Shown here piece after piece: positions 53,352 to 59,210 of a DNA stretch of 63,668 nt (its first letter is position 1; each line of letters begins with the position of its first letter). The notes below the pieces were generated by a model. It searched no databases and was not told where the DNA came from. It saw nothing but the letters and a program-made list of their open reading frames with translations. The position numbers and the translations under genes are program-made. The stretch comes from a virus (lineage: Duplodnaviria > Caudoviricetes): the IMG/VR virus record IMGVR_UViG_3300049432_000050, positions 1 through 63,668 of that record; one strand, 5' to 3'.

Positions 53352-54839
53352 TCACGCCGGGATCGGTTCGGAATCCGGCGCATCGTCCGCGACGGCGAAC
53401 GACTCGTTGACCTCCGCTATGAGCTCATCGGGCACCCAGTAGGCGCGAAACCGGCGCGGCGTCATCGCGGTAGACGCGTCTGCCGGCGAAACCCACGGCA
53501 GCCATGAAAGCCACCGCGGCACCGTGTGCGCCTCGAACTCGTCCGCGGCCTCGTCCACCTTGACGTAGCCCACCCCCGGCAGCGACGGCGGGATCTCATC
53601 CGCTCGCGCGCCCGACATGTACGCGGTGCGGCCGAGAATCTTGCGGACCGTGTCCACGTTGTCGATGCGCAGAGCGATCTTTACGGGGATCTCGTCGCGG
53701 TCCCGCACGATCTCCTTCGTGGCGTTCTGGACGGCGCCGACGACGCTGCATCCCGGTGCGCGCCCGACGTTGATGAGTTGCCGCACCGACTCGCCGACCT
53801 TCTTATCCGCGGCGAGGACACCCTGCTCGTCGAAGAAGATGACCGTGAGAGGCCGCTCCGGCGTCGGTGTCAGCTTGCGCTCACCGCGTCCCTTCAGGTA
53901 CGGCAAGTTGTCCTTCATTCGCGTAACGCCCTTCGCGAGCAGCGCCTCGATGTCCTCGTCGGTATCCGCGAACTCAGCGAACAGATTGCGGCCCGGGAAC
54001 AACTCGACGCCGCCCTTCGCGTCCGCGACCCAAATCTCGACGGAGCCCTCCCGGATATACGGGATCAGGTGCAGGATGATGCTCCAGAACACCGAGCCCT
54101 TGCCCGCCCCCGTCTGCCCAACGACGAGGACGTGCGACCCGAGCACTGGGGCCGTAACCTTCCGCCCGCGCTCGTCGACGCCGATCGGGATGCGGCGCAG
54201 ATCCACCTCGCTCGTGGACGCCGGGATGCCGGGGAACGGGACGACGTCAGCGAGCGGGTCGTCCCCGCGGGGAAGCTCGAGCGTGACGTAGTCCGTCTGC
54301 GGGATGTCCGTCACGCGGCACTCCCGCGCGAGGAACGCTTTTGCGAGGTTCTGCGCGGTCTGCCCGTCATGCCCGACGAACTCGCGTGTCGTCTGTCCCG
54401 GCAGCACCTTCACGCGGACCGTGTCACCGGAGCGCGTGCAGGTCACCTTTGCGAGCTTCGGGACCTTGTCGAATCCGTTGTCAACGATCCCGGTGAGGTT
54501 CTGCCCAGCGAGCACGCGCTGCCACCGCCGCTCATACAGTCGCCACCTGCGGAACGCGCTGTACAGCCTGACGCCGATCAGGCCACGGTACGCCGCGAGG
54601 ACGCCCAGGCGGCCTGTTGTGCGCGCGAGGACGCGGCCCGTGATGTTCCATGCGATCAGGGCCAGGGCACCGTAGAACACGACGCCGACCGCGGCATGCA
54701 AGGTCGTCACGACCGCGAGCGCGACGAACGCGGCGAGCAGGCCGGCGCGGACCGGAAACCGGTATGCCGCGACAGCGACGATCGCGACCGTCTGACACAC
54801 AATCACGATGAGGTTCCAGATCAGGACCGCCCAATCCAT
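53352..54839 (-). CDS. FtsK/SpoIIIE-family (TraB-like) membrane DNA translocase
   Basis: N-terminal TM helices; HVLVVGQTGAGKG, DAKGGVEL, IFFDE, GRAPG...AVQ, PGVGYV. Confidence 0.9.
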   Translation of the reverse strand: MDWAVLIWNLIVIVCQTVAIVAVAAYRFPVRAGLLAAFVALAVVTTLHAAVGVVFYGALALIAWNITGRVLARTTGRLGVLAAYRGLIGVRLYSAFRRWRLYERRWQRVLAGQNLTGIVDNGFDKVPKLAKVTCTRSGDTVRVKVLPGQTTREFVGHDGQTAQNLAKAFLARECRVTDIPQTDYVTLELPRGDDPLADVVPFPGIPASTSEVDLRRIPIGVDERGRKVTAPVLGSHVLVVGQTGAGKGSVFWSIILHLIPYIREGSVEIWVADAKGGVELFPGRNLFAEFADTDEDIEALLAKGVTRMKDNLPYLKGRGERKLTPTPERPLTVIFFDEQGVLAADKKVGESVRQLINVGRAPGCSVVGAVQNATKEIVRDRDEIPVKIALRIDNVDTVRKILGRTAYMSGARADEIPPSLPGVGYVKVDEAADEFEAHTVPRWLSWLPWVSPADASTAMTPRRFRAYWVPDELIAEVNESFAVADDAPDSEPIPA

Positions 54840-56191
54840 CAGGCACCCACGTCGAAGAGGGAGCCCTGACCTGTCGCGGCGACCGCGGCGCGTGCCTGCT
54901 CGGCCTCCAGGCGCTTGACGAGCGTCATGCCGTCCGGGTGCTCAGACCACCACGCAATACGAGCCTCAGCGATCGCGACGTACTCCGGCTCGCGTTCGAT
55001 GCCGACGAAGTCAAAGCCCTCCAGCTCCGTCGCGCAGCCCGTTGTGCCGCTGCCGGCGAACGGGTCGAGCACCGTCCCGCTGGGCGGGGTGACGAGCCGC
55101 ACGAGCCAGCGCATCAGGCTCAAACTCTTAACAGTCGGATGGGTATTGCGCCGTGGCCGTGGGACGTTGGAACGGCCGGGCCGCGGCATCCTTTCGTGCA
55201 ATGTTCCGCTGGGGCGATGGTCGAATGGGTCGCTCTCGCGCTCCTCGAACCCCTCGAGTCCCGCGTTGCGCTCGGCGCTGGAACTCTTCGCGCAGTAGAA
55301 CGCGCGTCGTTCCGTGTCCTCATGCCGGTGGTCGAAGGTGGGGAAGAACCGCGACGCGCCACCCGAATCGCCCGTGCTGATGACCTTACCTATGGGTGGC
55401 GCAGGGATACCGTTGTAGCCCCCTAGACCGTAATCGCGTCGGGCGGTACCGGGATGAGTCGTCAGCGTTCCCGTCTGCTCATCCAATAAACGGACCGGGC
55501 AGTCCTCGACGCACCTGTACGCGGCGACCTCTTCGGTACCGTCAGCATCCGCGTAGCCCGCGCTCATATCGCCGTTGCGCCCAACCCCGGCCTTGAAGTC
55601 CAGCGATACGCCGGGGCTCTCGCTGCCGAACTGCGGGTTAGGCACAGCGGGGCTCGCGGACTTCACGCGTCGTGTCCCTACCGGCTCGCAACGGGGCGAG
55701 TGACTGAGGATCGTGTTCGCGGGCCAACGACCCAGGTTGGCGTTGTGGCCACCCTCGTCTCCGGCCTCACCGGCGTTCCATCCCCATCCATCAGCACGTC
55801 GTCCGCCGCTCACTGACGCCGGCACATCCTTTGACGAGCCCACCCGGCACCCGTCCACGTTCAGTGCCCCGGTCCCGCGCGCGAGGACGTTCGCGCTCAC
55901 GGTCCCGCTCAAGGGTTTGCGGGCGACGACGATCGGCTCATGCGCGGGCTTGAGAGCGGTCCCCCACCCGGCCCAGCGCTCAGCGTCGGGGGTGGCGGGC
56001 GCGGTGACGGGAACCATGCCATTTATGGTTTCCGACCGCGACGTAAAGCCATCCGTGGCACCCGTCGTTCCCTGCCCCGCGTAGGTTGCGCCGCGCGTGC
56101 CATCCGGGAACTGGGGTCGCATTCCGACGACCTCCCGCTCCACTCCCGCCGCCTTGTCGATCGCCTTGCTCACGTCCAGCGACTTAGGCGC
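54839..56191 (-). CDS. Amino-DNA methyltransferase (N6A/N4C, beta class), C-terminal part
   Basis: KSLDVSKAIDK, GWGTALKPAHEPI, GRWPAN, HPTVK, VLDPFAGSGTTG; same frame as 56192-56620. Confidence 0.88.
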   Translation of the reverse strand, partial: APKSLDVSKAIDKAAGVEREVVGMRPQFPDGTRGATYAGQGTTGATDGFTSRSETINGMVPVTAPATPDAERWAGWGTALKPAHEPIVVARKPLSGTVSANVLARGTGALNVDGCRVGSSKDVPASVSGGRRADGWGWNAGEAGDEGGHNANLGRWPANTILSHSPRCEPVGTRRVKSASPAVPNPQFGSESPGVSLDFKAGVGRNGDMSAGYADADGTEEVAAYRCVEDCPVRLLDEQTGTLTTHPGTARRDYGLGGYNGIPAPPIGKVISTGDSGGASRFFPTFDHRHEDTERRAFYCAKSSSAERNAGLEGFEERESDPFDHRPSGTLHERMPRPGRSNVPRPRRNTHPTVKSLSLMRWLVRLVTPPSGTVLDPFAGSGTTGCATELEGFDFVGIEREPEYVAIAEARIAWWSEHPDGMTLVKRLEAEQARAAVAATGQGSLFDVGA

Positions 56192-56620
56192 TCAGGGGAA
56201 GCCGCTCCCGTACAACCAGTCCAGTTCTGGTCCGAGCGACTCCCCATTGGCATCACCTCCCCCGTTCAGGTGGAGGATGCGGTCACGGATCTCGAAACCG
56301 GCGAGGCGGATCGCGATGCACAGCAGGTCATACGTCCTAGTGCCCCCGAAGGCAACGAGGTGCGCCCCGGGTTTCAGGACGCGGTAGACCTCTCGCCAGT
56401 ACGCGGGTCCGGGCACAAAGCTATCCCAGGAACTCCCCATGAATCCATTGCCGCGATGGACGTAGTCGTCTCCGGCGAGCCAGTGCGTCAAGACCTCCGC
56501 GATGTCCGGCTCACGGCTCAGGCCGTAGGGCGGATCAGTCACGCACGCGTCAACACTCGCTTCGGGCATCGCGGCCATCGCCTCGACGCAGTTGCCGTGG
56601 ATGATGCGCGAGCCCATCAC
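56192..56620 (-). CDS. Amino-DNA methyltransferase, N-terminal part ending at an in-frame TGA
   Basis: VTDPPYG, RVLKPG, GFEIRD, WLYGSGFP*. Confidence 0.88.
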   Translation of the reverse strand: MMGSRIIHGNCVEAMAAMPEASVDACVTDPPYGLSREPDIAEVLTHWLAGDDYVHRGNGFMGSSWDSFVPGPAYWREVYRVLKPGAHLVAFGGTRTYDLLCIAIRLAGFEIRDRILHLNGGGDANGESLGPELDWLYGSGFP

Positions 56621-57159: not shown

Positions 57160-57654
57160 CTACTCGTCGCGGACGATCACGAACTCTGCGCCGATCTTGC
57201 GCTTCGTCAGGAGAGGGTCGCCGTACTTCTTGAAGCGCTGGTGATGCTTCCCACAGAGGGCGAGCCTGCGTGCCGGCTTCCCGCAAACTGAGCACATGGT
57301 GCGCGGCCGCGCTTTCTTGCCGTGGCGCCAGTGCCAGCGCAGATGGCAGGAGCCGCAGAGGGTTGCGATGTTCTCCTCGACGTTGTTCGACGGGTCCTCG
57401 TCGCGGTGATGCGTGTGCAGGCCCTCGATCGCGCCGCACTCCTCGCAAGCTCGTCCGCGTAGCTTCTTCGCTCGGGCGCGGTTCCCAGCGAGACTGACAA
57501 TGTCCTGTCGCATGCCGTCGGCCATGCACCGCTCGTCGCAGTAGATGCGTGCCAGAAAGCGGGTGCGGTCCTCCAGCCGACCGTTGAAGCGCTTGCGGAT
57601 AAGCTGCTCCCCGCATGCGGCGCAGTGCTTGACCGGATCGGGCTTCGCCTTCAT
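57160..57654 (-). CDS. HNH homing endonuclease
   Basis: CAACG, CEECG, HTHHRDEDPSNN..ENIATLCGSCH, LCGKHHQR..KYGDP; TATGAT 8 nt upstream of ATG. Confidence 0.9.
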   Translation of the reverse strand: MKAKPDPVKHCAACGEQLIRKRFNGRLEDRTRFLARIYCDERCMADGMRQDIVSLAGNRARAKKLRGRACEECGAIEGLHTHHRDEDPSNNVEENIATLCGSCHLRWHWRHGKKARPRTMCSVCGKPARRLALCGKHHQRFKKYGDPLLTKRKIGAEFVIVRDE

Positions 57655-57677: not shown

Positions 57678-58862
57678 TTAGTCGGCATCATTCCCACCGT
57701 CCTGCCTGCATGTGCTCTCGGATGGCAAGCCCAACTGTGTACGCCACATGGACGCAAACTCCGTCACCGAGAGCGCTGAGTCTGGATCGGTCCACCCGGG
57801 CGGCACTCCGAGCATCCACTCCACGAACTCGGGAGCTAAGCGGAGCCGGGGCGGATCCGTGGACGCGTCCCCATCGGTGGATGGCGGGGGCGTAGGCGCC
57901 CCAGTCGACAGCGACGCCATGGCTCCGCTCAGCTTTAGGTCGCCCTTGCCATATCGCTGCTGATTCTTCTCCCCATCCGACCGACTCGGAGTCGGCAGGA
58001 GGTTGAGCTTCGTCGCGGTGATCTCCAGGGACTTGCGCTCGAACTCGCTCGGTGCTCCCGTGTCCTTCACCATGTGCCGCGTCGGCGTCGGGAGCATCGC
58101 AAGGGACTTCATCAGCGAGGTGCCGGTGCTGTTCTTGCCGGGGATGTTCGGGCTGCCATCCGCCCGCCCGTCGCGTGCCACTGGCGTTGGCAGCAGCGGT
58201 GTCGACCCGGTCACCATGTTGCGTTCCGCTGCCGGCCGATGCTCGTACACCTCTACGAACCCCGACAGCGAACAACCGGTCCCGGAGATGGGGGGCCCCG
58301 ACCGCGGCGGCGGGGACGCATTCCCAGCGGACATCGAACCCGAGCGTGGCCATGTCCCTGAGAACGACTCCCCACAGGGATCCAGCAGGCTCGCCTGGGG
58401 CAGCAGCCATCCCCCTGATGTCGCCGACGTTCTCAATGAGCACGTAGCGAGGTTCAAGCTCGCCAATGAGTCGCTGCATCTCGCCCCACAGAAAGGTTTC
58501 GGCGTGCTCGAACCCGTTGCGCTTCCCGGCGCTGGAGATGCCACGGCAGGGGAACCCGCCGGCGACGAGGTCGACCGGTGTAGCGATGTCAGCGCGAACT
58601 CCAACTCGTTCCCCGTCGGCCCCGGCTTGCGGGCTTGGCCCTCCTTCGCGAAGCCGTGTGGCGTGGGCAGCAGCTTGACCTCGCAGGGTGCGGATGTCAT
58701 CGAACACCGGCACCCCGGGGAACCTGGTCCCGAGTAGCTCGCGTCGCCATGGGTCGGATTCGCACATCCAAGCGTGCCGGAAGCCGGCGAGGTGCAGCCC
58801 GAGGTCGAGCAATCCCACGCCAGAAAAGAGGGACCCGACCGTGGGACATCCTTCCGGCCCAT
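57678..58862 (-). CDS. Alternative-frame polypeptide of the C5 methyltransferase (motif IX and four LPTP repeats; true start may be internal)
   Basis: 394-codon open frame; WPRSG, LPTP x4, LAPEFVEWMLGVPPGWTD. Confidence 0.7.
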   Translation of the reverse strand: MGRKDVPRSGPSFLAWDCSTSGCTSPASGTLGCANPTHGDASYSGPGSPGCRCSMTSAPCEVKLLPTPHGFAKEGQARKPGPTGNELEFALTSLHRSTSSPAGSPAVASPAPGSATGSSTPKPFCGARCSDSLASLNLATCSLRTSATSGGWLLPQASLLDPCGESFSGTWPRSGSMSAGNASPPPRSGPPISGTGCSLSGFVEVYEHRPAAERNMVTGSTPLLPTPVARDGRADGSPNIPGKNSTGTSLMKSLAMLPTPTRHMVKDTGAPSEFERKSLEITATKLNLLPTPSRSDGEKNQQRYGKGDLKLSGAMASLSTGAPTPPPSTDGDASTDPPRLRLAPEFVEWMLGVPPGWTDPDSALSVTEFASMWRTQLGLPSESTCRQDGGNDAD

Positions 58863-58866
58863 TCAC
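57688..58866 (-). CDS. DNA (cytosine-5) methyltransferase, catalytic polypeptide lacking motif IX
   Basis: SLFSGVG, GGFPC, IENV, GAPHLRDRLF, RLSALGDGV; GGAGG RBS + GTG. Confidence 0.9.
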   Translation of the reverse strand: MNGPEGCPTVGSLFSGVGLLDLGLHLAGFRHAWMCESDPWRRELLGTRFPGVPVFDDIRTLRGQAAAHATRLREGGPSPQAGADGERVGVRADIATPVDLVAGGFPCRGISSAGKRNGFEHAETFLWGEMQRLIGELEPRYVLIENVGDIRGMAAAPGEPAGSLWGVVLRDMATLGFDVRWECVPAAAVGAPHLRDRLFAVGVRRGVRASAGSGTQHGDRVDTAAANASGTRRAGGWQPEHPRQEQHRHLADEVPCDAPDADAAHGEGHGSTERVRAQVPGDHRDEAQPPADSESVGWGEESAAIWQGRPKAERSHGVAVDWGAYAPAIHRWGRVHGSAPAPLSSRVRGVDARSAARVDRSRLSALGDGVCVHVAYTVGLAIREHMQAGRWE

Positions 58867-59210
58867 GACCCCTCCCGTTGCGCAACCAGCCGGAACCGCT
58901 GCCACGAACACCAACGATGCGCAAGGCGCGTCACCCGGTCCCCCGCCGACGAATGATCGTAAGCCGGGACGAACCCAACAGCGTCATCACGCTCGAGCAC
59001 CCGCGGCCACCCATTCGCCCGCGCATACGCCACGTCCGCCGCGGGCACCCGGACCGCGATAACGCCCTTCGATGCGTGGCAGTGGCGGTCCTCGTTCGTG
59101 CGGTCATTCGCCGCGCCGACCACCCACGCCCACACACACACCGCGGCCACAACCGCACCGAGGAACGCGACACGGATAGCCAACGCACCGAACAACGAAC
59201 GCGGCTGCAT
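58863..59210 (-). CDS. Membrane-anchored hypothetical protein
   Basis: N-terminal TM helix; coupled. Confidence 0.6.
   Translation of the reverse strand: MQPRSLFGALAIRVAFLGAVVAAVCVWAWVVGAANDRTNEDRHCHASKGVIAVRVPAADVAYARANGWPRVLERDDAVGFVPAYDHSSAGDRVTRLAHRWCSWQRFRLVAQREGS

Follow-up and report, generated by a model that had tools for sequence, protein, structure and literature searches.

Bacillus phages such as SPR and phi3T have multispecific DNA cytosine-5 (C5) methyltransferases that are single chains read in one frame; between motifs VIII and IX, these enzymes carry short, variable recognition units in tandem. An alpha/beta C5 methyltransferase, M.EcoHK31I (E. coli HK31, YGGCCR), was reportedly described by Lee, Kam and Shaw in 1995; the kind with beta in an alternative frame has been known since then, for one enzyme. 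As far as two publications describe M.EcoHK31I, its beta polypeptide is read from a different frame within the alpha gene and carries motif IX, and methylation needs both alpha and beta (PMC2836561, PMC3404938); the expression plasmids are named M38 and C23 in the first of the two sources (PMC2836561). The present analysis concerns a phage gene of related design in the window, by which we mean the whole 63,668 nucleotides (nt) of IMG/VR virus record IMGVR_UViG_3300049432_000050 (Duplodnaviria; Caudoviricetes), with a GC content of about 67-68%. Two open reading frames (ORFs) on the minus strand, frame A and frame B, overlap almost completely over about 1.2 kb, frame B being the +1 frame relative to frame A. 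They probably encode the alpha and beta chains of a two-chain C5 methyltransferase similar to M.EcoHK31I. An earlier sequence-only reading of this DNA had named that enzyme as a precedent for an alternative-frame beta with motif IX, and the precedent is real as the two sources describe it.

The likeness to M.EcoHK31I was assessed from the enzyme's description in these sources. It consists of a beta ORF in another frame within alpha, of motif IX on beta, and of motifs I-VIII and X on alpha. In M.EcoHK31I, as described there, the recognition domain lies in alpha and the nested beta is smaller, whereas here an array of short modules headed by the word LPTP (cassettes) lies in beta, the overlap takes in every frame B codon (394 of 394), one cassette precedes motif IV, the reading returns to frame A for a W-G-x-Y element between the cassettes and motif IX, and the two starts are only 4 nt apart. 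These features, together with the start common to both frames and the extent of the family that has retained the layout, are what is new here. Among the papers listed by a literature search there was no description of a family-wide two-frame phage methyltransferase beyond M.EcoHK31I, which does not prove that there is none.

Three other arrangements are informative for comparison. The single-chain relatives P0226 (766 amino acids, aa), P0256 (824 aa) and Tweety gp72 consist of the same parts in the same order and have cassette types in common with the window, but all their parts are in one frame and their motif X has Asn, whereas the window gene uses two frames and has Asp. Like the Bacillus phage enzymes, the window gene has tandem short, variable units between motifs VIII and IX, here in frame B of a two-frame gene. 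M.AquI-type split enzymes likewise pair a catalytic chain (motifs I-VIII) with a recognition chain (cassettes and motif IX), but, as far as they are described in the source, their genes are consecutive and motif X is on the second chain, whereas here the overlap is full and motif X is on the catalytic chain (PMC3404938). The family itself includes members of the M.AquI type, namely genes 40 and 41 of Arthrobacter phage TaylorSipht and the protein P0136. The latter (1050 aa), an extreme form of the recognition subunit found in split, M.AquI-like enzymes, lacks a catalytic domain and contains more than 20 LPTP-headed cassettes, followed by W-G-x-Y and motifs IX and X.

Probable parts of one enzyme in two frames

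The Pfam family PF00145 (C5 cytosine methylase) matched residues 26-225 only of frame A (E = 3.8e-31). Motifs I, IV (with the catalytic Pro-Cys), VI (Glu-Asn-Val) and VIII lie together in this frame, and their columns are invariant in 35 sequences. The sequence-only reading had assigned exactly these motifs and motif X to frame A and had found motif IX missing from it, in agreement with both the Pfam match and the invariant columns. Two features that it did not mention are the W-G-x-Y element in frame A and an Asp in motif X at a position where Asn is usual; the Asp is invariant across the 35-sequence alignment. Many full-length homologues of frame A with 40-67% identity have the same architecture, that is, no in-frame motif IX, Asp in motif X, and a gap-ridden stretch of low complexity between motif VIII and W-G-x-Y.

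An AlphaFold2 model of alpha (predicted local distance difference test, pLDDT, 65.8; predicted template modelling score, pTM, 0.63) was confident for the catalytic domain and for the helix of motif X. The cassettes as read in frame A (residues 210-322) had pLDDT values of 31-40, under 50, and were predicted to be disordered. This agrees with the earlier proposal that frame A tolerates the modules as linkers. The model matched only the large domain of M.HhaI, M.HaeIII and DNMT1; the fold match covered about 197-200 columns for M.HhaI and M.HaeIII, and M.HhaI matched alpha over motifs I-VIII. The motif IX and the folded recognition domain that C5 methyltransferases have between motifs VIII and X of the same chain were both lacking in alpha.

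Frame B contains candidates for the missing parts. A PHROGs search matched a DNA-methyltransferase family to frame B residues 97-363 (E = 1.2e-23). Frame B contains motif IX and four LPTP-headed modules, one of them upstream of the motif IV codons and three after motif VIII, as the sequence-only reading had described. Cassette 1 is inserted at a loop of frame A that was modelled at low confidence, and there the GC content was 0.90-0.95 at the third position of frame B versus 0.45-0.50 at the third position of frame A. The same cassette type sits after motif VIII in the loci L006, L016 and L095. More generally, module types recur, and their number, order and position differ from gene to gene. 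Like multispecific phage C5 methyltransferases, this gene thus has a tandem array of variable units; it contains four of them, and relatives have from one to more than 20.

Proteins corresponding to frame B have been gene-called in other datasets as hypothetical proteins. When the frame B protein of the window was compared with eight such relatives, the LPTP head before the motif IV codons was invariant in all nine, and the cassette behind it varied in type and length. This combination of an invariant head and differing cassettes looks like cassette exchange at a fixed site. One gene-called frame B protein, P0198, has an extra cassette at its start, upstream of where the frame A start aligns. 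Furthermore, L004, L012, L094, P0215 and others have an 18-nt insertion inside motif IX, which adds a Cys-x-x-Cys pair in frame B and, in frame A, lengthens the stretch before motif X.

The dual-frame layout was then followed through 169 related loci, whose DNA came from collections of genomes, viruses and metagenomes and which represent 158 distinct genes. The motif IX pattern was present only in the +1 frame in 70 genes, only in frame A in 30 genes, and never in the +2 frame; the 58 genes with the pattern in neither frame reflect limits of the pattern and cut contigs. In 136 of the 158 genes, frame B contained LPTP-type words and frame A did not; in 0 of 158 did such a word occur in frame A. 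The layout persists in relatives of 38-50% GC, whose other frames are full of stop codons. In-frame forms are rare, with a PF00145 match in 6 of the best 150 beta-like proteins (5 above the Pfam cut-off) and no Pfam family in the other 144. A profile of beta retrieved 13,480 proteins at E up to 0.001 from a library of 1.84 billion representatives.

When Tweety gp72 (Mycobacterium phage), TaylorSipht gp41 (Arthrobacter phage), P0226 and P0256 were used as tblastn queries, the window was matched in alternating frames. P0226 and P0256, each of which contains motifs I-VIII, about ten cassettes, W-G-x-Y, motif IX and motif X in one chain, matched frames A, B, A, B and A. In detail, motifs I-VIII were matched in frame A (58833-58156), the modules in frame B (58196-57909), W-G-x-Y in frame A (from 57906), motif IX in frame B and motif X in frame A. 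Because the single-chain relatives keep the same part order, the window contains the parts of a normal family enzyme spread over two frames, and because W-G-x-Y in frame A stands between the frame B modules and motif IX, the ancestral reading alternates A-B-A-B-A.

Alternation against single-frame enzymes is also the pattern expected if sequencing or assembly indels had broken a normal single-frame gene. The chance of this is practically negligible, as the same alternation occurs at the same places in independent genome, virus and metagenome contigs, and neither frame is interrupted by stop codons. A different explanation would be a single polypeptide made by programmed frameshifts, +1 after motif VIII, back before W-G-x-Y, +1 before motif IX, and back again before motif X. 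Its product would have the part order of the single-chain relatives, and in L106, a metagenome contig, a 1-nt deletion does join frame A to frame B right after motif VIII. However, four shifts would be required per chain, and five with cassette 1. In the 16 sequences compared, no conserved slippery heptamer or stop codon marks the boundary between motif VIII and the first cassette, and because a slippery site is missing there, we regard frameshifting as very improbable. In addition, both frames are open far past the segments that they contribute, frame B has a conserved start of its own, and two separate chains have been shown for M.EcoHK31I, as far as its description in the two sources goes. 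The fused ORF of L106 (L106:1308-2162) contains motifs I-VIII, cassettes and motif IX in one chain and has no in-frame motif X; a sequencing error may account for it, or it may be a variant that occurs naturally. In the Mycobacterium phage Tweety (L002), gene 72 is annotated as a single chain with one LPTP module in frame, and two further LPTP words lie in the +1 frame between motif VIII and the in-frame module. Because of these words, cultured mycobacteriophages may also use a second frame.

Selection on both frames and the proposed shared start

Alternative frames often stay open over long stretches at 67% GC. As a measure of this, the +1 frame of 18 other window ORFs (8734 codons) contained 0.0206 stops per codon, and the longest open run was 236 codons. 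Frame B was found to be open for 394 codons, the length that the sequence-only reading had given; about 8 stops would be expected over this length at the above rate, so that its openness exceeds chance. Over motifs I-VIII of 15 subfamily genes, there were 0 stops in frame B, compared with 14.7 expected when synonymous codons were shuffled within each gene. Frame B could be scored in 98 distinct genes, and in every one of them it was open over 50 or more codons ahead of the point where motif VIII ends. A frame B start codon is located far upstream of the modules, with an ATG exactly 53 codons before the end of motif VIII in the low-GC cluster, a start 94-125 codons before it in many mid-GC genes, and a start at the beginning of the gene in the window subfamily.

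The variability of the three codon positions was used to compare the constraints on the two frames. In 17 low-GC relatives, the third position of frame A was the most variable phase everywhere except in codons 151-225, which represent the modules; there the third position of frame B varied most (0.18-0.32) and that of frame A least (0.05-0.13). The modules of a pair from the window subfamily (L092 and L009) gave 0.47-0.67 for frame B versus 0.13-0.27 for frame A. In the last 300 bases of 14 subfamily genes, analysed in 6-codon windows, the leading phase changed from A (W-G-x-Y) to B (motif IX core) and back to A (motif X). Within the window gene itself, GC peaked at the third position of frame A in motifs I-III, IV-V, VIII and W-G-x-Y, and at the third position of frame B in the insertion before motif IV and in the modules. 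By the phase-specific variability and the GC phase, each segment is constrained as protein in its own frame and thus under purifying selection there. A coarse look at amino-acid conservation in 15-residue windows of both frames pointed the same way but was blurred by the shuffling of cassettes between genes. Owing to this shuffling, the 14-sequence phase analysis also gave no information inside the cassette region, with values near 0.5-0.6 for all three phases; the informative sets there were the L092/L009 pair and the low-GC cluster. In the L022 cluster, synonymous-site variability of frame A was about 0.12 in codons 91-150 and 0.22-0.36 elsewhere. This drop, where the frame B ORF overlaps, suggests that beta is also constrained over motifs VI-VIII.

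These data bear on the view that frame B goes untranslated as a relic or merely results from GC-rich codon usage, with alpha alone being the enzyme or the gene being dead. The frequency of long open frames at this GC content would fit that view, as would the fact that conservation of frame B over the catalytic region is largely a shadow of the frame A motifs. It is nevertheless barely credible, being contradicted by the phase-specific variability, which shows that in the modules and in motif IX the codons of frame B are under selection. Furthermore, the layout is kept at 38-50% GC, stops are rarer in frame B than expected, a given cassette type can occupy different positions from gene to gene, and alpha has neither motif IX nor a folded recognition domain. 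A frame B that is neither translated nor conserved had been named at the outset as an outcome that would speak against the heterodimer; as to conservation, frame B is under the selection just described. Judged from these sequence comparisons, the two-frame layout should be regarded as neither a sequencing error nor a pseudogene nor a GC artefact.

Both ORFs start in a single heptamer, GTGAATG. Its GTG (58866-58864) is the start of frame A, and its ATG (58862-58860) is the start of frame B. Both had been pointed out in the sequence-only reading, which had placed them behind one ribosome-binding site, and a purine-rich run was indeed found there. A detail that it had not included is that an upstream ORF, also read in frame B, has its stop codon in the TGA of the heptamer (58865-58863); a family search with this 115-aa ORF gave no match. 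An NTGAATG heptamer is present at the gene start of nine loci (the window, L003, L004, L006, L007, L009, L016, L095 and L150), NTG being the frame A start and ATG the first frame B codon following a stop. The upstream genes that end at the TGA of the heptamer differ between the loci, and most of them have a gene-like GC content at the third position. The heptamer forces the rare codon AAT (Asn) at position 2 of alpha.

The two-chain enzyme could also be produced with a beta chain that starts at an internal codon of frame B, e.g. at a Met just before cassette 1 or 2. The window has Met codons shortly before both of these cassettes, internal starts are found in other branches of the family (the low-GC and mid-GC starts described above), and the gene-called relative P0275 starts with a Met two residues ahead of the head of cassette 1. 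Yet frame B is free of stops from the gene start throughout the subfamily, including members that have no cassette before motif IV, the NTGAATG heptamer recurs in the nine loci despite the rare Asn codon, and no clear ribosome-binding sequence precedes the internal Met codons as read by eye. We therefore consider an internal start rather unlikely in this gene, and a start of beta at the heptamer is preferred in the following.

The predicted complex and the weight of the evidence

Prediction of a complex had been proposed as a check together with the heterodimer. The job consisted of alpha and beta residues 215-394, with alignments that we built ourselves. The pair passed, with scores of 0.86, 0.87 and 0.86, versus 0.00 for the best of three controls; the mark that defines a pass is reached by 116 of 157 solved complexes and by 2 of 215 mismatched pairs. 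At least 51% of the contacts were common to the runs, and the pLDDT of the partner was at least 54. The confident interface connects motif IX and the head of cassette 4 of beta with motif X, the W-G-x-Y helix, the motif I-II region and motif VIII of alpha. The two chains represent a split of a known fold, and the pair may therefore have passed because of its similarity to methyltransferases of solved structure. In the model, it shows that the pieces fit the canonical enzyme, from which binding in the cell does not follow.

Several observations weigh against the two-chain enzyme. Because the alignments were author-built, the calibration of the complex tool holds only roughly. In the model, confident contacts are confined to cassette 4 and motif IX. 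Folded alone, beta (residues 215-394) was predicted with low confidence (pLDDT 57) and mostly as coil. A PDB profile search with the same residues yielded 0 solved relatives, and a Pfam search of frame B matched no family. About 220 N-terminal residues of beta would be the out-of-frame reading of the catalytic domain and thus an unusually long unstructured leader. The exact heptamer is missing in 5 of the 13 distinct subfamily starts examined. Lastly, motif IV of frame A lacks the usual Gln after Pro-Cys, and, because of this and the Asp for Asn in motif X, activity of the enzyme is uncertain. The part of beta that precedes the first cassette after motif VIII, which corresponds to the codons of motifs VII-VIII read in frame B, may be homologous to an in-frame element of single-chain enzymes; a small profile comparison made for this question was dominated by the LPTP heads.

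Taken together, the heterodimer proposed by the sequence-only reading gained support in its central part, two chains from two frames, from selection, the stop-free frame B, the conserved start and the complex model. The further part of that proposal, multispecificity and a role in anti-restriction, is plausible for an orphan phage methylase.

Proposed mechanism and meaning for phage methyltransferases

The coordinates of all features are collected in the following table. No recognisable restriction enzyme gene was found among the neighbours of the two-frame methylase.

Table 1. Features of the two-frame methyltransferase locus and its neighbours. Coordinates of motifs and parts were derived by hand from residue numbers, and their edges may be off by one codon.
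Feature	Position in window	Strand	Frame	Remarks
Frame A ORF (predicted alpha chain)	57688..58866	-	A	392 aa and stop, from GTG (57688..58914 if counted from the first TTG); large catalytic domain (motifs I-VIII), disordered linker, W-G-x-Y helix, motif X
Frame B ORF (predicted beta chain)	57678..58862	-	B (+1)	394 aa and stop, from ATG; LPTP-headed cassettes and motif IX
Shine-Dalgarno-like purine-rich run GGGAGGGG	58869..58876	-		2 nt 5' of GTG and 6 nt 5' of ATG; common to both starts
Start heptamer GTGAATG	58860..58866	-		Two starts 4 nt apart
Upstream ORF	58863..59210	-	B	115 aa; stop inside the start heptamer
Motif I	58798..58836	-	A	S-adenosylmethionine site; invariant columns
Cassette 1	58581..58673	-	B	Inserted at the frame A loop between motifs III and IV
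Motif IV	58534..58560	-	A	Catalytic Pro-Cys
Motif VI	58426..58443	-	A	Glu-Asn-Val
Motif VIII	58270..58299	-	A	In most relatives, its final codons run into the frame B head of cassette 2
Linker	57916..58269	-	A	Frame A reading of the cassette region; low complexity, poorly conserved, gap-filled alignment
Cassettes 2-4	57909..58196	-	B	Matched there by tblastn of single-frame relatives
Cassette 2	58098-58196	-	B	
Cassette 3	58002-58097	-	B	
Cassette 4	57909-58001	-	B	
W-G-x-Y helix element	57838..57915	-	A	Invariant columns; between the modules and motif IX
Motif IX	57786..57848	-	B	
Motif X and C-terminal helix	57712..57789	-	A	Gly-Asp-Gly replacing Gly-Asn-Gly
HNH endonuclease gene	57160-57654	-		phrog_1271, E = 2.6e-9; directly downstream of the two-frame methylase
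Second DNA methyltransferase, other family	54839-56620	-		phrog_67; ORFs 56620-56192 and 56173-54839 with a stop between

We infer that both frames are translated, that the chains assemble into an active enzyme, and that the cassettes have a role in the choice of the target. According to the proposed mechanism, ribosomes that end the upstream gene at the TGA, or that are bound at the one site, could begin in either frame, and the NTGAATG heptamer would thus provide a shared start. Alpha would be made from the GTG and contain motifs I-VIII, the disordered linker, the W-G-x-Y helix and motif X. Beta would most likely be made from the ATG 4 nt downstream with the same ribosome-binding site as alpha, and its exchangeable cassettes and motif IX would be the counterpart of the small DNA-recognition domain. 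After assembly, in which motif IX of beta would pack on motif X, the W-G-x-Y helix and the motif I region of alpha, the two chains would rebuild the usual enzyme and methylate the phage DNA.

A more far-reaching proposal is possible, if doubtful at present. In it, beta would be a plug-in recognition subunit, and the cassettes would have separate targets, be swapped between phages, and be inserted at tolerated loops of alpha, even before motif IV. The result would be a multispecific methylase directed against many host restriction systems, with the heptamer setting the alpha-to-beta ratio. The two genes would then be among the longest mutually overprinted gene pairs in DNA phages, each chain using the functional segments of the other as linkers.

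Standard annotation records only the first chain, alpha. If both frames are translated, annotation misses half of a very common phage enzyme, and predictions of specificity from the annotated chain alone would be inspecting a linker. Under the same condition, the locus would clearly exemplify how a DNA virus can naturally use one strand over a long stretch to encode two proteins, the selection switching from frame to frame along it. It would also supply short exchangeable cassettes as candidate DNA-recognition units, and the shared-start heptamer would represent a simple route to two proteins from one ribosome-binding site.

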